Part shown: positions 2,209-47,985 of the stretch, in pieces | How positions within the stretch are numbered: position 1 is the stretch's first letter | How the letters are laid out: the number at the start of each line of letters is the position of its first letter | From: Acidobacteriota bacterium | GTDB lineage: Bacteria > Acidobacteriota > UBA890 > WLXD01 | Assembly: GCA_965205505.1 (NCBI GenBank) | Contig: CBDBHB010000006.1 | Coordinates: 352,001-416,000 of the forward strand | Length of the DNA stretch: 64,000 nucleotides | Direction of reading: 5' to 3' | Notes under the pieces: generated by a model | Database searches by the model: none | Seen by the model: the letters and a program-made list of their open reading frames with translations, nothing else | Told to the model about the DNA's origin: nothing | Program-made: the position numbers and the translations under genes

Positions 2209-3821
2209 CCCGCGCGCTCGCGCTCCACGAGCTCACGTCGAAGGATCTTTCCCGACGCCGACTTCGGAATTGCGGCGATGAACTCGATGGTGCGGATCTT
2301 CTTGTAGGGCGCCACCTGTTCCGCGACGAAGCCCTGGATATCGGCCGCTAGCTGGTCGTTGGCGTCCTCGGGCGAGACGTCCTTGGTAACCACGAAGGCT
2401 TTCGGAAGCTCGCCTGCCTCCTCGTCTTGGACGCCGATCACCGCCACGTCGGCCACCGAGGCGTGGGTCAGAATCAGCGCCTCGAGCTCAGCCGGCGCCA
2501 CCTGGAAGCCCTTGTACTTGATGAGCTCCTTGGCGCGATCCACTACCCAGACGTAGCCGGCCTCATTCGCATAGGCGATATCGCCGGTGTGCAGCCAGCC
2601 CTCCTCGTCGATGCAGTCCGCGGTGGCCTCGGGGGCGTTGAGATATCCGACCATGACATGCGGACCACGCTGGCAGAGCTCGCCACGTTCGTTCGGTCCC
2701 AGGATCGCACCGCTGTCGACATCGATGATCTTGGACTCGGCGTTGGGAACGCACGGACCGACCGACGACGTGTCGATGATCTCGGGTGGGTCGGGGTTCA
2801 TGTGCCCGACGGGGCTGAGCTCGGTCATTCCCCATGCCTGATTGACGCGTACCCCGAGGCGTTCGGCGACACCCGTGGCCACGTCCTCGCCGAGCGGCGC
2901 AGCGCCGCAAATCACTTGACGCAAGTGCGCAAGCGAATACTCGTCGACCGTCGGGTGTTTCGACATCAACAGCACGATCGGCGGCACCACGTGGGCATAG
3001 GTGACCTTGTAGTGCTCCAACGTGCGCAGGAACCGCTCCAGGTCGAAGCGCGACATGGTCACCATCGTGCAGCCGCGCATCAGCGAGTAGAGCATCATGA
3101 TCATGCCGTAAATGTGGAAGAACGGCAGCACGCCGATAAGCGTGTCGTCTTCGGTCAAGGCGTAGCCGCTTCCCGGCGCGACCCCGGCGATCTGCTGCAG
3201 GTTCGCTATCAGGTTGTAATGGGTCAGCATCACCCCTTTGGGAAGGCCGGTGGTGCCGCTGGAGTAAGGGAGCACCACCAGATCAGTGCGCGGGTCGATC
3301 TCGGCTGCCGGTACTGCACGCGCCGTTGCCGAAGACGTCTGCTCGGAGACCATCAGGTCGGCGAACGGCGTGGCGCCCTCGGCCTCGCCGAAGACGTAGA
3401 CCTGGGTAACGCCACCCGCTCGTGCTGCGGCGCGTGCCCGGTCGAAGAAATCGGGATTGGTGATCAGGAAGCTGGCGCCGGAGTCCTCGATCTGATGCTC
3501 GAGCTCGCCCTCGGTGTACAACGGGTTCACAGTGGTCACGGTGCCACCGAGCTTCGCCACCGCCAAGAACGCGATGGCGTACTCAGGGGAGTTGGCGGCA
3601 TAGAAAGCGAACACGTCGCCCTTGCCGAACCCGCGCTCGGCAAGACTGGCGGCGACGGTCGATACGGCAGCGACAAACTCAGCGAACGAGGTGACCTCGT
3701 CGGTCGCGCCGTTGATCAGCGCCGGCTTGTCGCCGTACCTGGCTGCACCTCGGAGGACGAAGTCGGTGAGCGACACATCGTGCGGAATTTCGACGTCTGG
3801 AAACGGGCTTCGGTAGATCAT
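2205..3821 (-). CDS. 4-coumarate--CoA ligase-like AMP-binding enzyme
   Basis: PYSSGTTGLPKGV, WGMTE, WLHTGD, KELIKYKGFQVAPAELE, PKSASGKILRR. Confidence 0.9.
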   Translation of the reverse strand: MIYRSPFPDVEIPHDVSLTDFVLRGAARYGDKPALINGATDEVTSFAEFVAAVSTVAASLAERGFGKGDVFAFYAANSPEYAIAFLAVAKLGGTVTTVNPLYTEGELEHQIEDSGASFLITNPDFFDRARAAARAGGVTQVYVFGEAEGATPFADLMVSEQTSSATARAVPAAEIDPRTDLVVLPYSSGTTGLPKGVMLTHYNLIANLQQIAGVAPGSGYALTEDDTLIGVLPFFHIYGMIMMLYSLMRGCTMVTMSRFDLERFLRTLEHYKVTYAHVVPPIVLLMSKHPTVDEYSLAHLRQVICGAAPLGEDVATGVAERLGVRVNQAWGMTELSPVGHMNPDPPEIIDTSSVGPCVPNAESKIIDVDSGAILGPNERGELCQRGPHVMVGYLNAPEATADCIDEEGWLHTGDIAYANEAGYVWVVDRAKELIKYKGFQVAPAELEALILTHASVADVAVIGVQDEEAGELPKAFVVTKDVSPEDANDQLAADIQGFVAEQVAPYKKIRTIEFIAAIPKSASGKILRRELVERERAG

Positions 3822-6054: not shown

Positions 6055-6145
6055 CTACCGTCCTGGCGTCTGGACGGATAGTCGGCAAACGCGACGAAGT
6101 CGGAACGCAAGAGGAGCTGCAACCCTTGAGGGAGAGGTGGTCGCG

Positions 6146-7633
6146 ATGACGAATCTGCAACGTCCCATGGTGCATACCGCAGGTGCGGGCAAGCAGAGCG
6201 CGCCAGACAAGGCCAAGCGGCTTCTCGCGATGGTTCTGGTCGCCCTGGTGGCCTCGGCCAACCCGGCCTGGGCGAGTTACTGCGTGTACGTGGGCAAGAA
6301 CCTCACGATCGACGGCAGCGTGTTCCTCGGCGGCTACGGCGACGAGCCCTCGAGTCATTGGCTCGAGATCGTGCCAGCGCGCACCCATGCGCCGGGCACC
6401 ATGATCTGGGTGGGTGGAACGGAAGACGCGAGGTTGCCGGCCAGCATGTCGCAGATCCCGCAGGCGGCGCGCACCGCGAAGTACATCACGATGAACTACT
6501 CCGAGTACGCCGGCTATCCGGAGCCGCTGACGAACGGTGGGCTCAACGAGTACGGGGTGGCGGCGCGCGACGTTTGGTCACCGTCGCGGCGTGAGCTGGT
6601 GGACATGACCCCCAATCCGCAGCTGGGCGGTCCGAACTACAGCGATCTGGCGCGTATTGCCATGCAGCGCACGCGAACGGCGCGCGACGCGGTCGAGATC
6701 ATCGGTGGCCTGATCGACGAGTACGGCTACACGAGCTACGGCGGCAACTCGCACCTGTTCGCCGACGCCGACGAGGGCTGGGTGTTCATCAACTTCGCCG
6801 GCGGCAAGGGACTGTGGGCAGCGGAGCGGCTCGGTCCGGACGACGTACGCGTCTCGCGCCCCGGCTATATCGGCGACATCCCGGTGGACTTCGAGGCGAG
6901 TGCCGACCACATGGGCTCGCCCAACCTGGTGTCGTTCGCCGTCGAGCAGGGCTGGTACCACCCGGACTCCGGCGAACCGTTCAACGTCAACAAGATCTAC
7001 GGCGACGGTCAAATGCGGCATCCGGCCGTGGCGATGATCGAGGAGCGACTGCGGAAGCTAGCCGGCAAAGTCGGCCTGACGGACATGATCGCCGCGGTCC
7101 GTACCACCGAGCTGACCGGCGACTCGGCCGGTTACGGACAGGTGGCTCACCTACGTCAGGGCAGGCACCCGGAGCTCGGCGTGCTCTGGGTCGCCGCAAC
7201 GACGTCGTCGATGGCGCCGTTCATCCCGTTCTATGTCGGCACCACCGAGGTGCCCCCGGAGCTTCGACGGCACCGTTACCTGAGCAGCGGCGAGGCCACG
7301 GGTTTCATGTCGGAGGACAAGCGTGGCATCGAGTCGACGCGCTTCGCATTGCGTACCTACAAACGTCTGCTCTACTTGACCGAGGAGCATCAGGAGAAGT
7401 TCCTGCCGGAGGTCACGGAGGCGCTCGAGGCGTTCGAGGCGCGATTGATCGAGCGCCAGGAGAGCGTCGAGCAGACCGCGCTGAAGCTCTTCGAGGCCGG
7501 TGAGCCTCAGCTCGCGCGGAAATACCTGACCTACTACAGCGGCACAGAGGCGCTCAACGCCTGGCGCCTCGGAGAAGCCCTCGCCAACAGCATCGAAGCG
7601 CGGACGAGAGCTCTGTACGGCATCCGGCAATGA
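6146..7633 (+). CDS. Secreted C69-family dipeptidase (Ntn hydrolase)
   Basis: Signal peptide AWA then SYCVYVGK..T.DGS; NGGLNEYGVA, TARDAVEIIGGLIDEYGY, LFADADEGW; start codon uncertain. Confidence 0.8.
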   Translation: MTNLQRPMVHTAGAGKQSAPDKAKRLLAMVLVALVASANPAWASYCVYVGKNLTIDGSVFLGGYGDEPSSHWLEIVPARTHAPGTMIWVGGTEDARLPASMSQIPQAARTAKYITMNYSEYAGYPEPLTNGGLNEYGVAARDVWSPSRRELVDMTPNPQLGGPNYSDLARIAMQRTRTARDAVEIIGGLIDEYGYTSYGGNSHLFADADEGWVFINFAGGKGLWAAERLGPDDVRVSRPGYIGDIPVDFEASADHMGSPNLVSFAVEQGWYHPDSGEPFNVNKIYGDGQMRHPAVAMIEERLRKLAGKVGLTDMIAAVRTTELTGDSAGYGQVAHLRQGRHPELGVLWVAATTSSMAPFIPFYVGTTEVPPELRRHRYLSSGEATGFMSEDKRGIESTRFALRTYKRLLYLTEEHQEKFLPEVTEALEAFEARLIERQESVEQTALKLFEAGEPQLARKYLTYYSGTEALNAWRLGEALANSIEARTRALYGIRQ

Positions 7634-9384
7634 GGCTCCATGGCGGGGCGTTGGTCGCCGCCGTCACGCTGTGCGCGGGGTGCTCCCCGGCGTTGCAGCT
7701 GCCGGCGGACACCATTGTCGTCAACGGCAAGGTGATCACCGTCGATACAGACGACTCGATCACCGAGGCGCTGGCGATTCGTGACGGCAAGATCGTCGCG
7801 CTGGGATCGACGCACCAGATCGAAGCGCTCGCGGGAGACGCCACGCGTCGAATTGATCTTGGCGGCCTGACCGCAACCCCCGGGCTCATCGATACTCACA
7901 ACCATTTCGCGGTCGGCGCCGCCGGAGCGCTCTTCACGCTCGACGTGTCGTACCCGGCGGTCGAGTCGATCACCGACGTCGTGGAGGCGGTTCGCGCCGC
8001 GGTCGCCGAGCGCGATCCCGGCGAGTGGATCACCGGCGGTGGATGGGACGAGGGAAAGCTCGAGGAACGGCGCTATATCTATGCCAATGATCTGGATGCG
8101 GTGTCGCCCGACAACCCGGTCTGGCTGACGCACACGACGGCGCACTACAGCGTCGGCAACTCCCTGGCGCTCGATCTGGCCGGTGTCACGCGCGACACGC
8201 CGGACCCGCCTGGAGGTGTGATCGACCGCCAGCCCGATGGCACGCCGACGGGCGTGTTCAAGGACACCGCGACGTCGCTGGTGCGACGCCACATTCCGAC
8301 CCGCGACGATGATCGCCTGCGCGAGGCCATCGAGCGTTACGTTCCCGAGCTGCACAAGGAGGGAATGACGGCGATCAAGGACCCGGAGATCGGCTTGCGC
8401 ACCTGGCACGCCTACCAGGCGGCGCTGGCTTCGGGGAGTCTCACCGCCCGGGTATTCGTGCTGTGGCGCGTTGGGCGAAGCGTCGAGGATACGCACCGGC
8501 TCATCGAGCAGGTCGGCCCGTTTACCAAGCCATGGATCTCCACCGGCGACGACATGCTGGTCTCGGGAGGCATCAAGCTGTACGCCGACGGTAGCGGCGG
8601 CGCACGCACCGCGTGGCTGCACGAGGAGTGGAACAGGAACCTCACCGAGGTCGATCACGGCAACTACGGCGTGCCGCGAGCCACTCCCGAGGTGCTTCGC
8701 GAGCAGATCATCGCCGTGCACGAGGCTGGCCTGCACCTGGGCGTGCACGCCATCGGTGACCGCACCATCGATGTTGTGGTGGATGCTTTTGCCGATGCGC
8801 TCGAGCGGAGTCCGGCATACGGGCTGCGGCACAGCATCATCCACTCCAACATCCCGACCGACGCGGCGTTGGACAAGATCGCCCGCCTGCAGGCCGACTA
8901 CGATGCCGTGTACCCGGAGGTTCAGCCCGGCTTTACCTGGTGGATCGGCGACACCTATGCCGGCAACTTCGGCCCGCAGCGGAATCAACGGTTGCTGGGC
9001 CTCAAAACCTATCTCGTTCGCGGTATCCGCTGGGGCAGCGGGTCCGACTACGATGTCACCCCGTTCGCGGCGCGGTATGGCCTCTGGGCTTCCGTGGCTC
9101 GCGAGACATTGATGGGTACCCACGGCGCGAATCCCTTCGGTACCGAAGAGTCCGTCGACATCCGCACGGCGCTGCGCTCCTACACCGCCTGGAACGCACG
9201 GCAGCTGTTCATGGAGGACCGCATCGGCACCCTCGAGGTCGGCAAGTACGCCGACATCGCCGTATGGGATCGTGACCTCTACTCGGTGCCGACCGACGAG
9301 ATCAAGGAGATGCGCTGCGAGTTGACGCTAGTCAACGGAGAGATCGTCTATCGGGCGCCGGAGACGCGCGTCTTGGTCGAGTAG
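7630..9384 (+). CDS. Amidohydrolase family 3 (YtcJ/NfdA-like) lipoprotein
   Basis: Lipobox CAGC; PGLIDTHNH, IKLYADGS, HAIGD, GSD, GTLEVGKYAD. Confidence 0.9.
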   Translation: MRLHGGALVAAVTLCAGCSPALQLPADTIVVNGKVITVDTDDSITEALAIRDGKIVALGSTHQIEALAGDATRRIDLGGLTATPGLIDTHNHFAVGAAGALFTLDVSYPAVESITDVVEAVRAAVAERDPGEWITGGGWDEGKLEERRYIYANDLDAVSPDNPVWLTHTTAHYSVGNSLALDLAGVTRDTPDPPGGVIDRQPDGTPTGVFKDTATSLVRRHIPTRDDDRLREAIERYVPELHKEGMTAIKDPEIGLRTWHAYQAALASGSLTARVFVLWRVGRSVEDTHRLIEQVGPFTKPWISTGDDMLVSGGIKLYADGSGGARTAWLHEEWNRNLTEVDHGNYGVPRATPEVLREQIIAVHEAGLHLGVHAIGDRTIDVVVDAFADALERSPAYGLRHSIIHSNIPTDAALDKIARLQADYDAVYPEVQPGFTWWIGDTYAGNFGPQRNQRLLGLKTYLVRGIRWGSGSDYDVTPFAARYGLWASVARETLMGTHGANPFGTEESVDIRTALRSYTAWNARQLFMEDRIGTLEVGKYADIAVWDRDLYSVPTDEIKEMRCELTLVNGEIVYRAPETRVLVE

Positions 9385-20468: not shown

Positions 20469-22790
20469 TTAGTTGCTGGCGACGACTTGCAGGGGCAGTA
20501 GTCGAATCGCCTGCCCCTCGGCCTCGGCATCGATGACCCGGACCTCGACCAGGTAGTTCCCTGGCTCGAGGTTGCTGGGCAGCTGCAGCGTTCCGCGGTG
20601 CACCGTGAGGCCGGTGGGCAGCAATGACTGGCCCGGTATATTCGCAACCGATCGGCGCGCATCACGACGGAACATCGCTGCCGACACGAACGGATCGATA
20701 CCATTTATGACCTCGACGCTGGCTGCGATCGGCATGCCTGCCGGCACGCCTTGCCCGAGCAACGGCATCAGCCCGGTGCGCTGATCCACCGCCACGAGCA
20801 TCGGGTCTCCCATGTTCCAATCGTCCCCCGGAGACGGCACCTCAACTTCGAGGCGCGCCGTGCCCACACGGTCGCCGCCGTCCTCGGCGATCACCACGCG
20901 CAGATCGTACTCGCCCGGGTCGACGCTCCACTCGGCCGTGTACCGGAAATGCCGGAAGGCGTTGTCGGGCGCGTACCGAAACAGGTCCGGCCTCGGTTCC
21001 ACTACCACATGGCTCTCGGCGCCGACTTCGCCGGCGCGGTTCAGCGCGACGGCGTGCACCCGGAAGTATCGGATACCGAGGGTCTCAACCCAGCCGTCGA
21101 CAGCGGTGACGTCGGGGCTCGAGATATCGATGCTCTCGAACGCCGGAGCCCAGCTGCCGTCGACTGATTCCGCCGGCAGCGGCAGGCCAGCCACTAGCAG
21201 GATGGTTGGCGTGCCGTCGTCGCCGAATCGCTGGTACGCCGCAGTCGGAACCGGACGACCCATGATCGAGCCGGGCAGCGCCAGCGCGGCGGCGATCTGG
21301 CGCGTCTTCAGCTCGGGCTCCGCCAGATCGCGGTAGCCGGAGCGGGCGCGGACCTGCAAGCCCGGCCGCCGCAGGGCCACCTCGATCTGGTGGTACTCGC
21401 CATCAGCGTGCGGCGGTGGAGGCTCGTAGAACACCAGGTAGAAGCGACTCGCGTCGTGGGTTTGCTGCTCGAAGGCGTCCGACAGGTTGCTCCAGCCGAT
21501 GAACGCCCGGCCGCCGGTCCTGCTGGCAATCTCGTGCAGAGGCGCAGTGAGGTCGCGATATGCAGGGCGAACGTGCCGACGCAGCGCTTGTGAAACGAGA
21601 TTGTCGCTGATGCTAGCCGAGGTGCCGAGATTGTTGAGCTCGGAGATCGGTCGCGGGTCCACCGTATAGATGCTCACGTTGCCGGTGTTCGCGGTTTCGT
21701 ACAGCTCTTCCAGCAGGTCCAGGATGCGACGGTTCGGAGCCGACCGACCGAGCTGCGATCGGCCTGCCTCAAGGGCAACCGCGTCGCGGACGGCGGCGGC
21801 GAAGGCTTGGTATGGACCGCCTTCACTGAGCATGGCCCCGGAGGAGATCCACACCAGTGCCGTGCGCCCCTCCATGGCCGACAGGGCGTTCGTGAAGCGG
21901 AGAAGGGTAGTGAGTGTCGCCTCACCCCGCTCGCGCTCCAGATCACCGTCTCGCCGCCCCTGTTCTTCCAGGTTCCCGACGATCTCGCGCAGTCTTACAT
22001 TTTGTTGGAGCGGTGTCCCCACTGTGAAACCGGCGCCTGAGGTGGCGGAGTTCACTGCCTCGATCGCCAGCTGCATTACGGGCTCGTAGTCCGTCGTCAG
22101 GCGCGTGAAGATAGTCTTGCGTGTCAGGGCAGCCGCAGACAACTTCTCGGCCGCCGCGCGTAGCACGTCGAGATCGGTGGTCAGGGGGGCGAGCTCCTGT
22201 ACTTCGCCATGCTGGTCGATCATGAACACGCTACGCGGCACGTGCAGTGTCTCGGAACCCTCGATGAAGTCGGTGAAAGTCGCGGTGAGCCTGGGCTTGT
22301 TTTTCGGATCCAGGCTCGGCAGGTCGACGAGGTAGACGATCGCACCGAGCGTGCCGGGCGTTCTGGCGATCGGGGTGAGCTCCGGCCCTGCGTCGTACGC
22401 ACCGTTGCCGCCGCCGTTCGAGCTGGCGCTCTCGTGCGCGGCAGATTCTGATTCCACGTCGACCGTTTCGCCGGTCTCGAGGTCTACCAGCTGAATATTG
22501 AGAATTCGCTGCTCGACGCCGTCCTCGAAGATCTGGAAGTCTTGCCGCGTGAGGTTGTCGACAAAATTGCTGTCGTCGTCGGTGACGATGGCGTCGACGC
22601 GCACCCGTGTCACCGCGCTACGGAACAGCGGCGCCTGCGCCGGCAGAGCTTCCTGGACGATACCGAGCCCTGGATGCGCCCTGGCGTTCGAATGGACCGC
22701 AGCGGCCGCGCGGTTCGACGAGGGCAGCAAGGCTGTCGATACGAGCATCAACAGCGCGATGGTGAGAACGGGTGGGCGGGACCTCTTCAT
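20469..22790 (-). CDS. Secreted Acidobacterial-type VWA domain protein
   Basis: FRS.V.RVRVDAIVTD..FV..L...DF.IFEDGVEQ, GR.ALVWISSG, YTVDPR, TGGRAF, DGEYH.IEV, VRARSGY. Confidence 0.82.
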   Translation of the reverse strand: MKRSRPPVLTIALLMLVSTALLPSSNRAAAAVHSNARAHPGLGIVQEALPAQAPLFRSAVTRVRVDAIVTDDDSNFVDNLTRQDFQIFEDGVEQRILNIQLVDLETGETVDVESESAAHESASSNGGGNGAYDAGPELTPIARTPGTLGAIVYLVDLPSLDPKNKPRLTATFTDFIEGSETLHVPRSVFMIDQHGEVQELAPLTTDLDVLRAAAEKLSAAALTRKTIFTRLTTDYEPVMQLAIEAVNSATSGAGFTVGTPLQQNVRLREIVGNLEEQGRRDGDLERERGEATLTTLLRFTNALSAMEGRTALVWISSGAMLSEGGPYQAFAAAVRDAVALEAGRSQLGRSAPNRRILDLLEELYETANTGNVSIYTVDPRPISELNNLGTSASISDNLVSQALRRHVRPAYRDLTAPLHEIASRTGGRAFIGWSNLSDAFEQQTHDASRFYLVFYEPPPPHADGEYHQIEVALRRPGLQVRARSGYRDLAEPELKTRQIAAALALPGSIMGRPVPTAAYQRFGDDGTPTILLVAGLPLPAESVDGSWAPAFESIDISSPDVTAVDGWVETLGIRYFRVHAVALNRAGEVGAESHVVVEPRPDLFRYAPDNAFRHFRYTAEWSVDPGEYDLRVVIAEDGGDRVGTARLEVEVPSPGDDWNMGDPMLVAVDQRTGLMPLLGQGVPAGMPIAASVEVINGIDPFVSAAMFRRDARRSVANIPGQSLLPTGLTVHRGTLQLPSNLEPGNYLVEVRVIDAEAEGQAIRLLPLQVVASN

Positions 22791-22992
22791 CGAGCAAACT
22801 CCTACACAGGATGGCTTGCAAGCACCCCTGCAATTTATCCGCTGCACCGCCGGAAACCAACAGCAGGGGCCGCAACAGTGGCCACGGTCGAAGGCGTCGT
22901 CCCCATTGCTGGCCATCCAGGCGCACAGGGTGCTCGATGCTGGCCGGCACGGATCGGACCCGGGCCGCGCAGCGTGTGTAGAGTCTACGCCC

Positions 22993-24489
22993 ATGGGAAT
23001 CGAGCTTGCTCGCAAAGCCGGGAGCTTCGCTACTCGGCTGGCAATCGACGGATCAGGCGGGACAGCCCTGTACTCGGAGCTGCTGGCGCGCTCCGCGGCG
23101 GTCGCAGCAGCCGTGCTGGGCGACCGGGACGACCTGTGCGATCGACGCGTAGCGTTTCTCGTGCCGCCGGGTGTCGAGCATGTCGCGGTGCAGTGGGGTA
23201 TTTGGCGCGCCGGCGGAATGGCCGTACCCCTGGCGCTGTCACACCCCGAGCCCGAGCTCGAGCGCGCCGTTGCCGACTGTGAGCCCGCTGCTCTGATCGG
23301 ATCTGACGCGGAGGCGGAGCGCCTGCGTGGCATTGCGGGCGGCGCCGGAATCGAGCTCCTCGCCGTGCCGACGCCGAGCGCTGAAGCCGCGCTGCCGGCG
23401 CTCCCGGAGGTGGCGCCCGATCGCCCGGCGCTCATGGTTTACACGAGCGGCACGACGGGTGCGCCGAAGGGAGTCGTTACGACGCATTCGATGGTCCAAG
23501 CACAGATCACGGCTCTTGCGCAGGCCTGGGGCTGGCGCGACGACGATCGAATTCTGCACGTGCTGCCACTGCACCACGTGCACGGGATGATCGTCGCCAT
23601 GGACACGGCGCTCTGGTCCGGCGCTTGCTGTGAGTTTTCCGCGCCGTTCGACACCGACGCGGTGTGGGAGCGGCTGGCCTCGGGCGATGTCACCGTGTTC
23701 ATGGCCGTGCCGACGATCTATGGTCGGTTGATCCGTGCCTGGGAAAACGCCGCGGATGAGGCGCGAGCCCGATGGTCGCGGGGGGCGGCGGGATTACGCT
23801 TGATGACCTCGGGCTCGGCGGCGCTACCGGTGTCGACAATGGAACGCTGGCAGGAGATCACCGGACACCGTCTTCTCGAGCGCTACGGCATGACCGAGAT
23901 CGGCATGGCGCTGTCTAATTCGCTGGACGGAGAGCGTCGCGCAGGCACCGTAGGGCAGCCGCTGCCTGGCGTCGAGGCCCGTATCGTGGATGGCGCCGGC
24001 AGCGAGGTAGCGGAGGGTACGTCCGGCCAGATCGAGGTGTGTGGTCCGCAAGTGTTCCGCGAGTACTGGCGCCGACCCGAGGAGACCGCGGCGGCGTTCC
24101 GCGAGGGTTGGTTCATGACCGGTGACGAGGGCGTGCTCGAAGACGGCTACTTCCGTATCCTCGGGCGCCGCAGTGTCGACATCATCAAGACCGGTGGGTA
24201 CAAGGTCTCGGCGCTGGAGATCGAGGAGGCCCTACGTCGGCACCCGGCGATCGCCGATGTAGCAGTGGTGGGCGTGGCCGACGAGGAGTGGGGCGAGTGT
24301 GTGTGCGCAGCAATCGTCGCCGTGAGTGGCGATGAGCCGCGCCCGGAGGCCATCCGTAGTTGGTGCAAGGAACGGCTGGCACCATACAAGGTGCCTCGCC
24401 GCATACGGTATCTTGACCGGCTCCCCCGTAACTCGATGGGTAAGGTGACCAAGCTGGCGGTGCACCCATACTTTGCCCAGGGTGGTTGA
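22993..24489 (+). CDS. Malonyl-CoA synthetase (MatB/ACSF3)-like acyl-CoA synthetase
   Basis: YTSGTTGAPKG, LPLHHVHG, FMAVPTIY, LERYGMTEIG, DIIKTGGYKVSALEIE, PRNSMGKV. Confidence 0.85.
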   Translation: MGIELARKAGSFATRLAIDGSGGTALYSELLARSAAVAAAVLGDRDDLCDRRVAFLVPPGVEHVAVQWGIWRAGGMAVPLALSHPEPELERAVADCEPAALIGSDAEAERLRGIAGGAGIELLAVPTPSAEAALPALPEVAPDRPALMVYTSGTTGAPKGVVTTHSMVQAQITALAQAWGWRDDDRILHVLPLHHVHGMIVAMDTALWSGACCEFSAPFDTDAVWERLASGDVTVFMAVPTIYGRLIRAWENAADEARARWSRGAAGLRLMTSGSAALPVSTMERWQEITGHRLLERYGMTEIGMALSNSLDGERRAGTVGQPLPGVEARIVDGAGSEVAEGTSGQIEVCGPQVFREYWRRPEETAAAFREGWFMTGDEGVLEDGYFRILGRRSVDIIKTGGYKVSALEIEEALRRHPAIADVAVVGVADEEWGECVCAAIVAVSGDEPRPEAIRSWCKERLAPYKVPRRIRYLDRLPRNSMGKVTKLAVHPYFAQGG

Positions 24490-29166: not shown

Positions 29167-29829
29167 CTACGGGGCCGGATAGAGAGTTTCCAATGCCGCC
29201 TTATCGGCATCCGACAATCCGCCGATGGCTTCGATGTCGGCCCGCTCATCGAGACGAGCCCGATAGCGTTGGAAATACATCGGGATATCACCGCCGAGTC
29301 GAAACGAGTACATGACATCCTCGAACTCGGCACTGTGCGGCAACCCGAGCGCATGCCCGAACTCGTGCAAGCACGTCAAGTACACCACGGCGTCGCGGTA
29401 CAACGGATCGCGGCGAGCACGGCGGTCGATTTCCGGCCCCAAACCGCCGGTGGCCGGACGCACGAAGACCGCAGCTCCGGGCCTACCCTGATAGCTGAAC
29501 GGTCGCATCTCGCCGAACAGGCCGCCGGAGGCCGACACCCAATAGAGATGGAGCAGCGCGTCTTCCCATGGCGCTGGCTCGAGTACGAGCTGGCCGTTGG
29601 CGGCACGCTCCCAAGCGCGCAGCGCCCACACTGCGAGCTCGTCATCGCGGGCACGAAACCCGGTGTCTGGCTCACCCGATGGAACGTAGAAGCCGATGGG
29701 GTTGCGATTGTCGAGGGGACCATACCCTTGCACCCACGCAACGGCGCGGGCCGTCGAAGAGGCGACTGCAAGCAACGCGCTGCCCGCGACCACCAGACGA
29801 CGGATCAATGCCCGAGCGTCGGGTGTCAA
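29167..29829 (-). CDS. Matrixin-family (metzincin) zinc metalloprotease
   Basis: HEFGHALGLPHS plus Met-turn DVMY; hydrophobic N-terminus; TTG start inferred. Confidence 0.8.
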   Translation of the reverse strand: MTPDARALIRRLVVAGSALLAVASSTARAVAWVQGYGPLDNRNPIGFYVPSGEPDTGFRARDDELAVWALRAWERAANGQLVLEPAPWEDALLHLYWVSASGGLFGEMRPFSYQGRPGAAVFVRPATGGLGPEIDRRARRDPLYRDAVVYLTCLHEFGHALGLPHSAEFEDVMYSFRLGGDIPMYFQRYRARLDERADIEAIGGLSDADKAALETLYPAP

Positions 29830-29833
29830 GCAT

Positions 29834-30631
29834 CTACCATCCGCACTGACGGTTGGCGTTCTGCTCGTCGAGCCAGGCTTGCAGGGGGGCGAAGGAGTCG
29901 AGAATGGCGGTGGCGTCCATCTCGGTCTCGCCGGTGAGCGCCTCGAGCGCCTCGGGCCACGGGCGGCTGGCTCCCATCTCGAGCATGGCGTTGAGTCGAG
30001 CTCCTGCCTCCTCGCTTCCGTAGATCGTACAGCGATGCAGCGGGCCCTCGAAGCCGGCCGCATCGCACATCGCCCGGTGGAACTGGAACTGCAGGATCCG
30101 GGCGATGAAGTACCGCGTATACGAGACCATTGCCGGGATGTGGTACTTGGCGCCCGGATCGAAGCTCTCTTCGGTTCGCTCGATCGGCGGCGCCACGCCT
30201 TGGTAGCGCTCGCGCAGCTCCCACCAGGTGCTGTTGAGCTCGTCGGCGCCGATGTCGCCACTGGAGATTTGCCAGCGCCACTGGTCGAGCATGTAGGTCC
30301 ACGGTAGTGCCGCGACGCGATCAAGCGCCATGTTCAGGAGTAGTCCAATGTCACCGGACGCAACAGGGACCTCGTCGATGAGGTCGATCTGGTGCAGTTA
30401 CTCGGGGGTGATCGACAGCGCGATGGCGTCGCCGATGGCCTCGTGAAAGCCAGGGTTGGCACCACCCTGATACATCGTTGGCTGGTCGCGGTAGGCGCGT
30501 TGGTAGAAGTTGTGGCCGAGCTCGTGATGGATGGTATCGAACGAGTCCGCCGTCTTGTCGATGCACATCTTGATGCGGTAGTCCTCGCCGTCCCCCATGT
30601 CCCAAGCACTGGCGTGGCACACAACCTGGCG
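29834..30631 (-). pseudogene. C-terminal half of M2-family (ACE-like) peptidyl-dipeptidase with in-frame TAA
   Basis: RQVVCHASAWD, HHELGH, GANPGFHEAIGD, TPE*LH (TAA 30398-30400), DQWRW, FDPGAKYH, YTRYF. Confidence 0.9.
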
Positions 30632-30790
30632 GGGTGGCTCCGTGCCCTGAACTATCTGGGTATGTATCACGCAGAACGCCAAGAGCGGGCGCAGGCGGAG
30701 GGCTACTTCCGACGTTATCTGCGCTATTGGGGCGACGGTGAGATCGACCGCGACGAAGTTGCGGCGGCCCGCGCCTACCTATCCCGGTAA
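30632..30790 (+). pseudogene. Displaced C-terminal TPR tail of the Ser/Thr kinase, inside the inversion
   Basis: GWLRALNYLG...YFRRYLRYWGDGEIDRDEVAAARAYLSR*; TPR-like, no start or RBS of its own. Confidence 0.75.
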
Positions 30791-30830
30791 TGCCGCGTTG
30801 CCCCACCACGGCCTGCTAAGGATCACTTCT

Positions 30831-31829
30831 ATGCTTCGAGCTGCCGCTTGTCTCCTGATTCTCCTCACCGCGTTGGCGTGCGCCGCAGCCGGCGATGGTC
30901 CGGTCACACCGGCCGACGCCGACGCATTCATCGCCGAGTCTGAGCAGCAGTTGGCAGCACTGGGCCGATCGCAAGCCAACGCCGACTGGGTGCAGGCCAC
31001 GTACATCACCTACGACAGCACCAAGGTCGCCGCCGCCGCCCAAGAGCGCATCACCACCGCGGCAGTCGATCTGGCCAACGCATCGACCCGCTTCGACGGG
31101 CTCGACCTGGCTTTCGACACCAGGCGCAAGTTGGGAATGCTCAAACGAGCTCTTTCGGTGCCGGCGCCGGCCGACGAACAGTTGATTGCGGAGATCGCGC
31201 GGCTCTCCAACGAGCTGACCGGAACCTACGGCTCGCACGAGTACTGTCGCGACGACGGCGAGTGCCTCCAAGAGCCGCACATGGTCGACATCATGGCCAA
31301 CAGCCGCGACCCCGATGAGCTTCTCGAGATTTGGCAAGGCTGGCGCACCATGGGCCCGCCCATGCGCGACGACTACATGCGGGTGATGGAGATCGCCAAT
31401 CAAGGCGCGCGCGTGCTCGGGTTTGCCGATCTCGGGGCATTGTGGCGCTCCAACTACGACATGGATCCCGATGCGTTCGCGGCAGAAGCCGAACGCCTGG
31501 TGCGCCAGGTGCAGCCGCTTTACGAGGCGCTCCAATGCCACGTCCGCGCCGGCCTCCATGACTACTATGGGTCGCGCATCGTTCCTCTGGACGGCCCTAT
31601 CCCGGCCCACCTCCTGGGCAACATGTGGGCTCAGAGCTGGACAAACGTATACGACCTCGTGGCGCCGGAGTCGTCGGCAGCGGTGTATGACCTCACGGAA
31701 CGCATTCAGCGCTCGCGAATGAGCGAGCTCGACATGGTCAGCACCGGTGAGGCGTTCTTTACATCGCTGGGCTTCCAGCAGTTGCCGGAGACCTTCTGGC
31801 AGCGTTCACTGTTCACCAAGCCGCGAGAC
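30831..31829 (+). pseudogene. N-terminal half of M2-family (ACE-like) peptidase, inside the inversion
   Basis: Signal peptide; ADWVQATYIT, SRDPDELL..W.GW, PLYE.L.C.VR, IPAHLLGNMWAQSW, FWQRSLFTKPRD, then homology stops. Confidence 0.9.
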
Positions 31830-31831
31830 AT

Positions 31832-34723
31832 GATCGGGTTGTCGACCCGCGGCATCGACGCTTCCTCCACGGCCCTGAGCTCCCGGGCGGCGGCCTCTTC
31901 GTGGCCGCCGAGCCACAACGACTCGGCGAGGATGAATCTCATCGCGAGCCCTTCATCGCTCAGGTCGCGGGTCGGCAGCAGCTCCAACGTGGTCCGTAGG
32001 TGGGGAACCGCGGCCTCGAGGTCGCCTGATGCCCACGCGATTACTCCGTCGATCTGAGCCTCCGCACGGCGCTGGCGGATCTCGGTCAGCGGCACTCCGG
32101 CGATCGACTCGCGGAACGCATCGGCCACTTGGCGTGCGCGCGCCTCATCGCCGGCCAGCACGCGTCCGACCATCTCATTCAACGCCACGAGCTGTGGGTT
32201 CGCCGGCTCAGGCGCCGTCCGACGCAGCTCTTCGGTCCGCTCGAGCGTCAGCTCCGCGTCCGCCAAGCTACGTGCCAACTCGACCTGTGCCCCGAGCGCG
32301 CGCTGGTGTTCCATGCTGCCGGGGGGGAACAGTGTCCCCGCCTCCTGCAGCGCGGTTCTCGCTGTGGCCGCCTGGCCGAAGTACAGGTTCTGCGCGGAGA
32401 GCGCCAAGTATCCCTCGAACTTGGCCTTTGGATTCGGATCTTGAAGCATCGTGCGAGTCTCGGCGCGCGCTTCGTCCCAGCGCTCTTGCATCACCAGGAT
32501 GCCCCAGCGCAGTACGCGCTTCCGGTACTCGGGTACAAGACGGTTTGCGGTGGCGAGCTCTTCCAGGGCTTCGTCGTACGCGCTGTTGCGCGCCAGCCCG
32601 GCGGCGAGATTGAAGTATCCCTCGGCGTTGTCCGGGTTCGCCTCGACGTACTCTCGGAGCACGGTCACGGCATCGGCAACCCGCCCTCGTGCCGCATAGG
32701 CGAAGGCCATCGAGTAGGCGTTAGGCGCGAAGGAATCGCGCGCTTGCCGGAGCTCCTCGAAGTGTTCGATTGCCTCGTCGAATCGCTCCAGATCCATGAG
32801 GCCCTGGGCAAGGTTGGTGCGCGCCGCAAGGTGGTCGGGGTACGACTCGACAGCCTTGGCGTACTCGTCCAGCAATTCGGTGATGGTGCGAGGGTCCATC
32901 CCCAAGTCGCGTCCGCGGATGTAGTGGCGTTCGCGCGGCGGCAAGCGGTCGGCCATGTCGAAGGCTCGCTGAGCGTAGCGAGCCGCTATCTCCTTGTCGC
33001 CGAGATTACCGTGCGCCACCGACAGCTTGGCGTGCGCCATAGCGAAGTCGGGGTCCAGCTCGACCGCCCTCTCGAGCAGCGGAACAGCGTCACGGTACTT
33101 GGACTGCAAGTTGAGCTCGACGCCCTCGTTGTAGAAGCGGAACGCCTCGATGTTGTCGGTCGTGACCTCCTCGATGTCTCGATAGCCCATAGCGCCGCCC
33201 GACAATGCCGCGTCGTGGTCGGCGTGGCTCATGTCGAAGCTCGCCTCGATCCACGCATGTAGCTCGTCGACCAGGTCGAATAGCTCATCGACGCTTCCCT
33301 GTACCGATCCGGACGACAACACCTCGCTCGAGTCCGGGTCTTGAATGCGAGCGTTGATGCGGATCTCGTCGCCGGCGCGGGCGAAGCTGCCGACGATCGC
33401 TCGGTTCATGCCGGCCAGCCGGGCGATCTCGCCGACCACCTCACCAGAGGTGGTGGAATCGCCCAGACGTCCCATGCCTTGCAGCATCGAGTAGAGGCGA
33501 TCGGTGGCGAGCACACGGACGCCGGGAATCTGCGACAGGTCGGTGACCAACATTTCCGTGAGGCCGCTGCGCAGCCATTCGAGCTCGGGGTCGCCGCTAA
33601 TGTTGTCGAAATAGAACACCGCAACCGAGAGTTGGCCGTCGAGCGAGGTTGGAAATGCCGGTGGTTGCCCCACTCTCGGGCCGGGTTCCACTCTGTCGCG
33701 GAGACCGAAATAACCGATTGTCAATACGGCCACGACCGCGACGGCAAGGGCACCATAGCGGAGCCACGAAGAAGCCTCGACAACGACAACCTTGGAGCCC
33801 GGAAGGTAGGCTCCGAGCTTCGATACCCTGCTGACGTCGGAATGGAGTCTGGACGAAAGCAACTCGCCGGTCTCCAGATCGCGGCGGATCTCCTTCAGAT
33901 CCCGTCGCAGGTCGGCTGCCGTCTGGTAGCGCTGGTCGGGCTGCTTGGCCAGCGTTCGCTGGATGAGGCGCGCAATCGGCAGCGGGATCGCCTGTCGCAC
34001 ATCGCTGACGGAGTCGGGGTCATCCTTGAGGATCGACGAGAGCACCGAGATGTTGGTCTCGCCATCGAAGGGACGTTTCCCGGTGATCATCTCGTACAGC
34101 AGGATCCCGAGCGAGAAGATGTCCGACCGGTGATCGAGACTGCGTCCCTCAGCTTGCTCCGGCGACATGTAGGCGATCGTCCCCAGGATCTTTCCCTCGC
34201 CGGTGAAGTCACCGGTCAGCATTTGCGTCATGCCGTCGGGCCCGCTGCGCTGCTCATTGATCTTGGCGAGCCCGAAATCGAGCACTTTGACGCGCCCGGC
34301 GTCGTCCACCATGATGTTGGCCGGCTTGAGGTCGCGGTGAAGGATGTTGCGCTCATGCGCGGCCGCGACCGCATCGGCCAGCGGCACGGCGATGTCAAGG
34401 AATTCCTTGACGGGCATCCCCTCGCGCGGAATGAGCTGGTCGAGCGTTTGGCCGATGATCAGCTCCATGGTCATGAAGCGAACGCCGTCGGCCTCTTCGA
34501 CCGCGTAGATCGTGACGATGTTCGGGTGGCTGAGCGCGGCAACGCTCTTAGCCTCGCGCTCGAAGCGCGCCAGACGCACCGGGTCGTCGGCCAGACTCTC
34601 CGGCAAGAGCTTCAGCGCCACCTGGCGGTTGAGCTTGGTGTCGCGCGCGGCGAACACCTCGCCCATGCCACCGCTGCCGAGCTTGCGCACGACCTCGTAG
34701 TGCGCCAGTCGCGTTCCGATCAC
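31832..34723 (-). CDS. Ser/Thr protein kinase with TM, TolB_N/FlgO-like and TPR domains; C-terminus disrupted by inversion (current ORF reads on to 31706)
   Basis: LGSGGMGEV, VALK, HRDLKPAN, DFGLAK, YMSPEQ, SDIFSLG, TPR repeats; GGAGG RBS before GTG 34723. Confidence 0.9.
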
Positions 34724-34854
34724 CGCGAACCCTCCGTGAGTCGCTGCGAACAAGACTACCTCTTGTCCGTGGCCGCTCGTAGCCCGCCGGGCCGCACCTC
34801 GGTAGCCGTCGATGGGACGTCGTCTGCGTCTGAGCGCCGCGCCGACGTGCCGGT

Positions 34855-35637
34855 TCAGGTGACCTCGTCAGCCAGCGCGATGACGCGCAGGGGGCTACCG
34901 CTGCCGTCGACCAGCTTCAGCGGTGCGGCAATCACCACCGCGCCCGTGGGCGGCAGCTTGTCGAGGTTGCACAGGCTGGCAAGCCCCAGCTTGCCGGCCC
35001 CGTGCATGAGCGTGTGGGCCGGGAAAGCGGGATCAAAGCCAGCCGCCTGGCCGGCGTCCGTGCCGACTGTCTCGACACCGATGCCGAGGATGTCCCGTTC
35101 GGCCAGTATCCGGATCGTGTCGGTGTGGAATCCTGGACTGTGCGGGCCGTCGTCGTGGATGTTGAGGAACGCCTCGGCACCGCGACGGTTGCTCCACCCG
35201 GTGTTCAGGAGCACCCACCCGCCGGCCGCCAGGGGTCCGTGTTCGCCCTCCCACGCTCGCAGTTCTTCCGGGGCGACCAGATAGTCGGGATCATCGGCCA
35301 CTGCCGCAGTTACATCGATCACGCTGGCGGGGCCGACGAAGCGGACCGGAGAGATTGTATCGGTGGTGTTGTCGGGCAGGTCCTTGCCGCTGATCCAGTG
35401 GCCAGGCGCGTCGAAGTGCGTACCGGTGTGCTCACCGAAGCTCAGCGCATTCCAGTACCAGGCCGGTCCGTCGTCGTCGAATCGCGAGATCTGCTCGATG
35501 GTGACGCCAGGAGAGAGCGCGAACGGTGGCGGCAAGGCGATCACAGGCGTGTCTGGCTCGAGGGGTTGCGTGAGGTCGACGATGCGAACACTGCCGTCTC
35601 GAATGGCATCAGCTAGCTGGGTCAGAAGGCCGCTCAT
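34855..35637 (-). CDS. Cyclase/kynurenine formamidase-family metallohydrolase
   Basis: VDLTQPL, GEHTGTHFDAP.H, LP..GA....APLK...GSGSP.R. Confidence 0.9.
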   Translation of the reverse strand: MSGLLTQLADAIRDGSVRIVDLTQPLEPDTPVIALPPPFALSPGVTIEQISRFDDDGPAWYWNALSFGEHTGTHFDAPGHWISGKDLPDNTTDTISPVRFVGPASVIDVTAAVADDPDYLVAPEELRAWEGEHGPLAAGGWVLLNTGWSNRRGAEAFLNIHDDGPHSPGFHTDTIRILAERDILGIGVETVGTDAGQAAGFDPAFPAHTLMHGAGKLGLASLCNLDKLPPTGAVVIAAPLKLVDGSGSPLRVIALADEVT

Positions 35638-36217: not shown

Positions 36218-36730
36218 TCAGTCCGCCCACATCAGGTCGCGCCCGAGCAACACGCCGACCGGTCGCAAAGAAGAGTAAGCCAGCGACATCGCCTGCTCCA
36301 CGCGGTGAGGCACGTGGTCGGGTGCCTCCAGACGCAGGTGAGGAATGCGCAACGCGTCGAGGACGTGCACGGTCTGTCCGCCGCCTTCGGTCTGCCAGGG
36401 GTCGCGCTCGCCGAACGAGCCGCGGTCGCTGATCAGCATCAACAGCGGAATACGGTAAAGCTGTGCCCCCGAGACAATGCCGTTGACCGATGCCAGAAAC
36501 CCATGATTCTGCATGAGCATCACCGATCGCACGCCGGCGAGGTGGGCACCCATCGAGATCCCGACGCCCTCCTCTTCCTTGGCGAGCCGCACAAGTGTGG
36601 TGTCGGCGTCCTCCTCGGCAAGGCGGATGAGGTGTACAAGCCAAGTCTCCGGAAGCGCCGAGATGATCTCGACGCCGCACGATTTGAGCGCCTCGTAGAC
36701 GACCCGCGAGTTGCCTAGCGAAACCGGCAT
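36218..36730 (-). CDS. TPP-dependent decarboxylase alpha subunit (ComD-like)
   Basis: LPETWL, KEEEGVG...GAHLAG, LMQNHG, IS.RG..GE. Confidence 0.85.
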   Translation of the reverse strand: MPVSLGNSRVVYEALKSCGVEIISALPETWLVHLIRLAEEDADTTLVRLAKEEEGVGISMGAHLAGVRSVMLMQNHGFLASVNGIVSGAQLYRIPLLMLISDRGSFGERDPWQTEGGGQTVHVLDALRIPHLRLEAPDHVPHRVEQAMSLAYSSLRPVGVLLGRDLMWAD

Positions 36731-36759
36731 GACGGTTCCCGTTGTCAGGTGCTGCCCGT

Positions 36760-37935
36760 CTATTGCAGCGTAATGAGGTACTTGATCGCGAACGTGCCGA
36801 GCCAGTGCGACCCGTAGTAGTTGGCCTCGAACATCGCCGCCGTTCCATGGGCCGCCTGCTGTGCTGCGGTTGATCGGTAGGCCTCGAAGCTCGGATGCTC
36901 GCTGCCGAGGGTGGCCGCCAGGCGACTTAGCGCCTCGGCACGCGTGAAGGCCAGCCCGATCAGGTGCGACTTCGCCCCCATGAGCCCGCCGTCCTCTGCG
37001 ACACTCTCGCCCAGTTGTACTTGTTCAGCTAGTCTGCGAAAGTTCGGGCTGTCCGGCGCTGGCAGAAACCTGTCGTGCCAGCTCGTGAAGCTCGGCCGAT
37101 CGAGGACCCGTGCCATCAACGTCGCCTCTTGTAGACATGGTGACAAGAAATCGGAGGCCGATGGCTCGTAGGCCAACGGACAATCGACGTCAGCGCCGTA
37201 GAGTGCCTCGGCGCGCGAGACTACCAGGTGCCATAGAGCCGTATCATCGGTGCTCTCCGCGTAGTCGAGGATCAGATCCATCGCGAATGCGGTGTTGGCA
37301 TGGGTACCGCTACGCACCGGATAGTCGAGGCTCTCGAGATAAAAGGGCAAGCGATCGACGAATACCTGCGCCAGCGGCGCCGAGTTCTCGGCCCAGGTGG
37401 CGGCATCGGGGTATGTCGAGTCGCTCAGCGCGGCGTGCAACGCAAGCAACCAGGCCCAACCATAGGGGCGCTCGAAGGAGCGGTTGTCGGTGAAGAAGGA
37501 AAGCTCACCGGCAAGCGGCCGCGCGCCGAGGTGCTCGTCGAGCTTCTCGGCGATGAGCGGGGCGATGGGCGACTCCGGGAACCGATCGAGGATCTCGACC
37601 AGCGCCCAGGTCGAGTTCACTGCCGAGTGCCAGTCGAAACAACCGTAGAAGGCGCGCGTGGTCTCGAAGTCGGGACGCAGCGCCGCAGTGCGCTCATACA
37701 GGTACCCGGTCCCGCTGGGGGCTGTGTGCGGCCGATCAAGGCATGCGAGTGGCATTGCTGCCAGCGCCAGTGCCGTGTTGTCGTCGAGCTTCGGCTCGTC
37801 CGGTAGAGCAAACACCGGATCGGGCTGAGCTTCCGGCGGGGTTCTGTCGACGTCAGCCTGACAACCGCCCAGCGCGGTGAGCATCAAGGCCACTACGTGA
37901 AGCGAACGGTGAGAACTGAACGAAGGCATGATCAA
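36760..37935 (-). CDS. DUF2891-family lipoprotein
   Basis: AFYGCFDWHSAV, FERPYGWAWLL, RSGTHANTAF, EPS..DFLSPCL.EA, YYGSHWL.TFA. Confidence 0.9.
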   Translation of the reverse strand: MIMPSFSSHRSLHVVALMLTALGGCQADVDRTPPEAQPDPVFALPDEPKLDDNTALALAAMPLACLDRPHTAPSGTGYLYERTAALRPDFETTRAFYGCFDWHSAVNSTWALVEILDRFPESPIAPLIAEKLDEHLGARPLAGELSFFTDNRSFERPYGWAWLLALHAALSDSTYPDAATWAENSAPLAQVFVDRLPFYLESLDYPVRSGTHANTAFAMDLILDYAESTDDTALWHLVVSRAEALYGADVDCPLAYEPSASDFLSPCLQEATLMARVLDRPSFTSWHDRFLPAPDSPNFRRLAEQVQLGESVAEDGGLMGAKSHLIGLAFTRAEALSRLAATLGSEHPSFEAYRSTAAQQAAHGTAAMFEANYYGSHWLGTFAIKYLITLQ

Positions 37936-46914: not shown

Positions 46915-47154
46915 AGCGAATCGCCAACGCTGACGTCGGGTAGCTTGTCAGCCAACTGGTAGGCGGCCTCGATCGAAACAGGCTCGAGGCCCAGAGCCGC
47001 CTCCATGAGAGATTGGCCCTCCACGGGCTCTGTCCACAGCACGCTGTAGCCGACCAGCAAGAGCGTGACAGCTGCCGCCGCCGCCGCAAGTCGCCAAAAC
47101 TGTTGCAAGAGCACCAAGCCGCTCGGTTTCGGTTTTCGGTGCTCGCTCAGTCAT
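46911..47154 (-). pseudogene. Frameshifted putative anti-sigma membrane protein
   Basis: ATG overlaps sigma stop; TM-coding part is in a different frame. Confidence 0.6.
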
Positions 47155-47747
47155 CCGACTCGGCCGCCCATGGTCGGAGCATCGGCTTCAGCGTCTTCAT
47201 GGCCCGGGACAGACGCGACATGATGGTCCCCTGCGGAACCCCGAGAAGCTCCGCCGTCTCGCGGGTCGAGTAGCCTTCGATCATACGCAGAACCACGATC
47301 GCCCGATGATCGGCTCCGAGTGAGCGGATCGCGGCATGCACCGCCCCGACTACATCGCCGCTCGACACGGCGCGCTCGCCACTCACGGCCGACTCGGCCA
47401 GAGGAGTCTCATCGGCGGAACGGTCACGGCTGACGAATCGGTCGAGCAGCCTGCGTCGGCGTTTTTAGCGCGTTGAGTGACTGATTGATGGCGATGCGGG
47501 TCAGGTAGGTCTTCACTGCCGCCTCGCCGCGGAACCTGGAGAGCGATCTATAGAAGCGCACGAAGACCTCCTGGCCGACGTCGCCGGCGCCGTGGCCCAG
47601 CATGCCGATTACCGTTGCTGCCACCGCTCCCTCGTAGCGCTCCACCAGTATCCTGAACGCCTGTTCGTCGCCGCTCTGTGCCCGGTCGACCAGGCTCCGA
47701 TCATCTTCATCGGAGGCTGGAGTTGAATCGCGCACAGGAGTCTCCAT
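47147..47747 (-). pseudogene. ECF RNA polymerase sigma factor, frameshifted
   Basis: Region 2 (DVGQEVF, FRGEA..KTYL.RIAIN) and region 4 (LR.IEGYS..E.AELLGVP.GT.MSRL.RA) are in different frames; A5 run at 47462-47466. Confidence 0.88.
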
Positions 47748-47985
47748 GACCGTCGCTTATTAGACAGTCCAGTCAACGGTCTCATTCCATCTGTCGTCAC
47801 CGGAATCGACACTTGCGTCCGGAGACCCAGCGGCTGGGCGCGTTTCGCATCTTGATGTCGCCGTGGGAGGCTGCCCGTTGGGTCACCAGGCCTGTGAACG
47901 ACAGGCTAGACTCCTCGACTGGCGGCCTCACCGTCGGCGGAGCTCTGACGACGGTGAGCGCCATCGGGTGCCACAGGGGGGCGCG

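Follow-up and report, generated by a model that had tools for sequence, protein, structure and literature searches.

Within a 64,000-nucleotide stretch of an Acidobacteriota genome (assembly GCA_965205505.1, contig CBDBHB010000006.1, positions 352,001 to 416,000; hereafter the window), a gene encoding a serine/threonine protein kinase with tetratricopeptide repeats (kinase-TPR) and a gene encoding an ACE-like peptidase of family M2 are both broken, and each has one piece on the strand opposite to the other. The DNA sequence, read together with the proteins of sister genomes, reveals a reciprocal inversion in which positions 30634-31829 (1,196 bp, no strand assigned) lie back to front, with breakpoints placed to the base. 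The segment was delimited from the sequence of the junctions, from two anchors in the sister proteins (the residues I-M-W of the kinase and KPRD/RQVV of the peptidase) and from a scripted read-through. It contains the last base of kinase codon 965, kinase codons 966-1016 with their stop codon, a spacer of 40 bp (30791-30830, plus strand) and M2 codons 1-333. Since the kinase tail, the spacer and the start of the M2 gene are contiguous, the kinase gene must have stood directly upstream of the M2 gene before the flip, and the order on the minus strand, as deduced from the sequence, was then cyclase, kinase-TPR, 40-bp spacer, M2 peptidase and a matrixin-like gene.

The kinase-TPR open reading frame (ORF) runs on the minus strand from a GTG start at 34723 down to 31706, and its product is identical to a protein of 1005 aa already present in the database (P0001). 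Its native part, codons 1-965 (31829-34723, minus strand), corresponds to P0001 residues 1-965 and is about 99% identical to an intact sister protein of 1016 aa, P0121. Pkinase is matched at residues 19-278 of the query (E 3e-48) and is followed by many TPR families; homologues with this layout measure 1014-1024 aa and have a like tail, and the layout is the one by which bacterial Ser/Thr kinases with a C-terminal TPR array (about 1000 aa) are defined. The last native codon, ATG at 31831-31829, shares one base with the inverted segment. After it the frame continues for 40 unrelated codons and a stop (31706-31828, minus strand), which are the antisense of the N-terminal half of the M2 gene, so that P0001 ends in SRGLVNSER...LIRER where its sisters show WLRALNYLG.... 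The missing 3' end is found on the plus strand at 30635-30790, where codons 966-1016 (WLRALNYLG...AYLSR) and the stop codon match the C-termini of P0121, P0123, P0126, P0127 and P0002-P0006, and that of P0124 up to a late frameshift. This displaced tail gives a weak match to TPR_10 (E 0.004), below the cut-off. Since it is shared by the sister proteins and by relatives with 41-44% identity, the plus-strand tail at 30635-30787 is the true C-terminus of the kinase. As a consequence of the flip, the kinase keeps residues 1-965, loses its last 51 and gains 40 that are unrelated. An earlier note on this DNA, made from the sequence before any database search, had described the kinase as broken after RVDNPI with its tail on the plus strand; this is correct, except that the native sequence extends to RVDNPIM, and the tail is carried by the sisters.

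The M2 gene is broken in a complementary way. Its N-terminal frame starts with ATG at 30831 on the plus strand and is native up to FTKPRD (codon 333), beyond which the sequence is unrelated; these codons 1-333 (30831-31829) comprise the signal peptide and the N-terminal half of the enzyme without the zinc site, match positions 5-311 of the 581 of PF01401 (E 9e-82) and are 99% identical to a sister protein of 598 aa, P0129. Codons 334-598 and the stop are on the minus strand (29834-30631): this piece begins with RQVVCHASAWD at 30631, ends at the stop codon 29836-29834, carries the zinc motif HHELGH and has no start codon of its own. It is matched by Peptidase_M2 in two parts, 30631-30401 at PF01401 positions 313-389 (E 1e-35) and 30397-29837 at positions 392-581 (E 2e-80). 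The three pieces jointly span 5-311, 313-389 and 392-581 of the 581 positions and include an HEXXH motif, as is proper to the M2 (ACE-like) family, and the fact that these positions are consecutive bears out the split between FTKPRD (31829) and RQVV (30631) proposed in the earlier note. That account of the gene held as far as the split is concerned, but it overlooked a second lesion that is visible in the translations. Between the two C-terminal matches, at 30398-30400 on the minus strand, M2 codon 411 is an in-frame TAA, where P0129, P0130, P0249 and P0254 have Y (ITPEYLHQ) and where the closest related genome that we found (L001, discussed below) has TAT; it could be either a real nonsense mutation or a single-base error of the consensus. 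Through the flip the M2 gene is left in two parts, an N-terminal one of 333 codons that lacks the zinc site and a C-terminal one that has no start codon and also carries the TAA. In the sister fragment P0252 a frameshift is found three codons past Y411, the residue at which the window has its TAA.

When 30634-31829 was turned back by script and positions 30632-30633 were left out, the kinase was read as 1016 aa and the M2 gene as 598 codons, the lengths anticipated in the earlier note. The reconstructed kinase has the same length as P0121, with 7 differences, and the reconstructed peptidase the same length as P0129, with 4 differences. Since both lengths equal those of the intact sister proteins, no coding sequence was lost through the inversion, in agreement with what had been claimed before this alignment with relatives was available.

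The anatomy of the two junctions was examined by hand. The ancestral DNA at the kinase break is fixed as ATC ATG TGG by the sister residues I-M-W, M and W being encoded by a single codon each, while at the M2 break the related genome L001 reads GAC CGC. With these references, the breaks fall between kinase codons 965 and 966 and between M2 codons 333 and 334, 1,196 bp apart. The left flank ends at 30631, where codon 334 of M2 opens on the minus strand, and comparison with the sister proteins and with L001 shows two extra G at this junction (30632-30633, no strand assigned), although the extra pair may be any two of the run 30631-30634. The right junction (31829/31830) is exact, the right flank beginning at 31830; here 31828-31829 fits both the M2 codon GAC and, on the other strand, the kinase sequence ATG-T, which amounts to an overlap of 2 bp (AC on the plus strand). 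The net surplus of 2 bp noted earlier was recovered by frame arithmetic and can now be assigned to the two G of the left junction. Because of these two bases, turning the segment back always puts either the kinase or the M2 gene out of frame; the earlier statement that no clean flip mends both frames is right, and 30632-30633 have to be left out for both to be restored. For the same reason the inversion is not reversible in any useful sense. Staggered cuts filled in with duplications of 1 or 2 nt were also considered by hand, and the junctions that they predict differ from those observed; a clean flip with two added G is the simplest parse. No common motif of the restriction type was seen by hand at the two break sites.

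The state of the locus in other genomes was derived from the proteins of the sister assemblies. The cluster of the kinase at 90% identity holds nine sequences, of which eight are distinct from the window's own P0001 and five reach the junction; P0122, P0125 and P0128 are N-terminal or middle fragments and are uninformative at this point. All five that span it (P0121 and P0123, both of 1016 aa, and P0124, P0126 and P0127) are un-inverted and read NPIMWLRAL, their sequences across the junction being NPIMWLRALNYLGMYHAERQ and RVDNPIMWLRALNYLGMYHAERQ, and more distant kinase homologues (41-44% identity, 1014-1024 aa) have a like C-terminal tail. Three contigs of sister assemblies have the kinase broken into 2-3 pieces. 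The chimeric form, P0001, is known from one contig only. For the peptidase, the cluster of P0129 has six members of 598 aa and the 276-aa fragment P0252, all seven un-inverted. P0129, P0130, P0249, P0254 and P0252 read FTKPRDRQVVCHASAWD across the break (KPRDRQVV), and P0250, P0251 and P0253 align along all 598 residues. Sister assemblies about 99% identical to the present one thus have both genes intact, and in these comparisons the inverted form is private to this assembly. An event that is sporadic and confined to one lineage, as expected of an illegitimate rearrangement, is what the five un-inverted kinases and the seven un-inverted peptidases describe.

Comparison of gene order with relatives, which had been suggested in the earlier note, was informative for one locus of the 80 examined, since in the other 79 none of the tested neighbour genes is shared. 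This locus, L001, belongs to an Acidobacteriota metagenome-assembled genome and is the closest found (82% identity over the N-terminal half of M2); it shares the neighbourhood, with genes for DUF2891, the subunits of a thiamine-diphosphate enzyme, the cyclase, M2, a matrixin-like protein and a ClpB-like protein. In L001 9213-11797, compared with 29834-35637 of the window, the cyclase gene directly adjoins M2 and there is no kinase-TPR gene between them, from which it follows that a gain or a loss of this 3-kb gene separates the two lineages. A second difference lies between the DUF2891 gene and the genes of the thiamine-diphosphate enzyme, where L001 has an ORF of 644 aa (6071-8005, minus strand) and the window a gap of 29 bp (36730-36760).

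On this evidence we consider it likely that a one-off, non-homologous inversion took place in the sampled lineage or population, by end joining or by template switching, and disrupted both genes. Two breaks 1,196 bp apart, one in the kinase gene (965/966) and one in the M2 gene (333/334), would have released a fragment that was rejoined in reverse without homology, the left junction gaining two G. The likeliest route would be that two double-strand breaks were end-joined, or that the template was switched twice during replication. LigD adds non-templated nucleotides. Junctions with little homology and small additions, which mark non-homologous end joining (NHEJ), are those found here (an overlap of 2 bp and an addition of 2 nt), and the likeness to Ku/LigD NHEJ extends to overlaps of 0-2 bp, the re-ligation of a fragment in reverse and a single private event. 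In Sinorhizobium, NHEJ is reported to have joined a cassette into a break of the chromosome in either of the two orientations, with mutations at the ends (PMC6379672); a difference is that the incompatible ends described in that work mostly gave deletions, while here no base was lost. The inversion also resembles the spontaneous inversions reported from a Salmonella chemostat study in being small, spontaneous and independent of a site-specific recombinase (PMC3411829), but the confirmed events of that report all had inverted microhomology of at least 12 bp, whereas the present junctions have 2 bp in one case and none in the second. An inversion mediated by short inverted repeats was accordingly discarded, as k-mer and alignment searches found nothing near the roughly 12 bp of microhomology expected at the endpoints. 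The inversion belongs among ordinary structural variants, as one more case of a kind of event already known, and reveals no new mechanism. Of the three readings offered in the earlier note, which were an invertible switch, a one-off rearrangement and a chimera of assembly or amplification, the second fits best, and the first fails for want of repeats, of an invertase in the 64 kb and of a conservative exchange.

Several observations weigh against a one-off inversion in the organism. The junctions are known from the consensus sequence alone. Ku and LigD were not found by Pfam scans of the window. A junction with 0-2 bp of homology is unusual for a spontaneous inversion when set against the at least 12 bp reported for Salmonella (PMC3411829). 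With the exception of the TAA, nothing independent points to decay of the genes once broken: relative to the sister with a contig of 3.69 Mb, the two broken genes together differ at 13 of 1614 residues, and seven neighbours that are intact differ at 15 of 2755, which is no clear rise (Fisher p = 0.33; three of ten neighbour genes have no partner in that strain and were left out). This lack of excess divergence may mean either that the inversion is recent or that the data are too few. Moreover, elsewhere in the window five consecutive A (47462-47466) mark a frameshift in the gene of an extracytoplasmic function (ECF) sigma factor, a lesion typical of sequencing error, and the sister assemblies hold several split genes (P0122, P0124-P0128, P0252, P0298-P0301), which may be either genuine pseudogenes or sequencing errors left in the data.

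These last points lead to the alternative that the flip is an artefact of assembly, consensus or library, produced by chimeric molecules, by a short piece placed in the wrong orientation, or during polishing or scaffolding, the organism itself being un-inverted. The inverted form is indeed present in one assembly while the five sister sequences covering the junction are un-inverted; the extra bases fall within a run of G; the frameshift in the run of A and the single-base TAA in M2 are both possible sequencing errors; and the genes for the kinase, M2 and a BlaR1-like protein, which in several sisters are shortened or in pieces at various positions, suggest that the assemblies, or the local sequence context, are prone to error, and error-prone data could be common in this group of genomes. 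However, the flip is reciprocal and preserves every base, whereas chimeras of multiple displacement amplification (MDA) are reported to be inversions with an intervening deletion in more than 85% of cases (PMC1855051). Such chimeras are similar to the present case in that their junctions are inverted and show overlaps from priming of 2-21 nt (Lasken and Stockwell 2007, PMC1855051), but those described are single junctions, mostly accompanied by a deletion, and here two reciprocal junctions preserve all bases within a contig of 524 kb; the single inverted junction, usually with deletion, that marks an MDA or library chimera is therefore not what is observed. No repeat able to confuse an assembler is present at the junctions, and a change from two to four G is, in our estimate, large for a homopolymer error. 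The quality of the consensus is also generally good: 35 large ORFs of the window have full-length domain matches, and all ten neighbour proteins that were looked up were found in the collection, mostly with sisters of equal length. Apart from the lesions listed, the consensus of the window looks sound, and we regard an artefact as unlikely, although it deserves to be taken seriously.

It could also be proposed that the segment is a reversible intragenic inverton, operated by an invertase encoded elsewhere in the genome, that toggles the C-terminus of the kinase and the expression of M2. In the intragenic invertons described in a recent preprint (10.1101/2023.03.11.532203), breakpoints within coding sequence generate premature stops and split ORFs, and here too both breakpoints are intragenic and no base is lost. 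In the same preprint invertons are defined by an invertase acting on a pair of inverted repeats. The sole short inverted repeat near the junctions consists of ACAACC (30621-30626) and GGTTGT (31837-31842), neither with an assigned strand; the two arms are set off from the breakpoints by 5-7 nt on the outer side and are not at them, and k-mer and alignment searches confirmed the earlier observation that this is the only symmetry and that it stands just outside the junctions. A 6-bp inverted match with arms outside and at most 15 nt away occurred at only 676 of 20000 random pairs of positions with the same spacing, which could be taken in favour of an inverton, while a match anywhere within 15 nt on either side occurred at 3942 of 20000. 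Among exact k-mers, inverted matches of at least 7 bp were absent within 15 nt of the junctions. Local inverted alignment with flanks of 30, 60 and 100 nt gave scores of 6.0, 6.0 and 8.5, nothing above chance, as these were attained by 1140, 1494 and 928 of 1500 random pairs respectively and are at or below the random median. In a repeat search of 29500-33000, none of the 25 longest of 435 inverted pairs lay within 50 nt of both junctions. A crossover inside ACAACC/GGTTGT was also considered and rejected, because it would invert the 5-7 nt between arm and junction as well, and those bases are not inverted.

As for the enzyme, Pfam scans covered 6 gene pieces, 35 large ORFs and, in the gaps left by these, 103 stop-to-stop ORFs, 144 in total, and no family of recombinases, integrases or transposases was found in the 64-kb window, as the earlier note had also stated. 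Invertases can work at a distance and the search covered 64 kb. However, the exchange was not conservative, since two bases were gained and no re-flip mends both genes; the flipped M2 gene lacks the zinc site and carries the TAA in addition, hence there is no alternative product to be switched on; and none of the five sister sequences is flipped. No sign of the alternative orientation was seen in this assembly, the count across assemblies being one inverted and five un-inverted. The locus therefore differs from known intragenic invertons in having no flanking repeats, no nearby invertase, a gain of 2 bp and a span that takes in parts of two genes and a spacer, and we judge an inverton to be very improbable. 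A recurrent or programmed inversion needing no inverted repeats, for example one made by an enzyme recognizing both sites with ACAACC/GGTTGT aiding synapsis, which would silence the M2 peptidase and give the kinase another tail in a fraction of the population, appears to us just as hard to credit.

The remaining content of the window is that of an ordinary chromosome, with DNA polymerase I, seryl- and glutamyl-tRNA synthetases, HflX, HU, transporters and hydrolases. The ECF sigma factor gene mentioned above (47150-47756, minus strand) has Sigma70_r2 in 47427-47756 and Sigma70_r4_2 in 47150-47464, in separate frames, and removing by hand one A from 47462-47466 joins them; the split may reflect either a pseudogene or a homopolymer sequencing error. 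The BlaR1-like protein has 752 aa in the window and 530 or 656 aa in some sister assemblies. A minus-strand ORF of 988 aa (20469-23435) has no Pfam match and overlaps by about 940 bp a plus-strand frame (22495-24486) encoding a full AMP-binding enzyme, and part of it is probably not a gene. Finally, an AMP-binding protein of 538 aa (2208-3821, minus strand) is placed in a database cluster whose listed members, the representative included, are mostly AAA ATPases of 268 aa from Microbacterium; this mixture looks like an oddity of clustering and not like biology.

The locus offers a worked example of how the proteins of sister genomes alone suffice to place the ends of a small inversion to the base, and to polarize it, in a metagenome-assembled genome. 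Inversions of this kind create chimeric ORFs that enter the databases, such as the kinase of 1005 aa (P0001) and an M2 hybrid of 439 aa. If the favoured explanation of a one-off non-homologous inversion is true, the junctions would be the record of end joining or template switching that needed no repeats, in an uncultured lineage of Acidobacteriota, and the M2 peptidase and the C-terminus of the kinase would have been lost simultaneously in this lineage.

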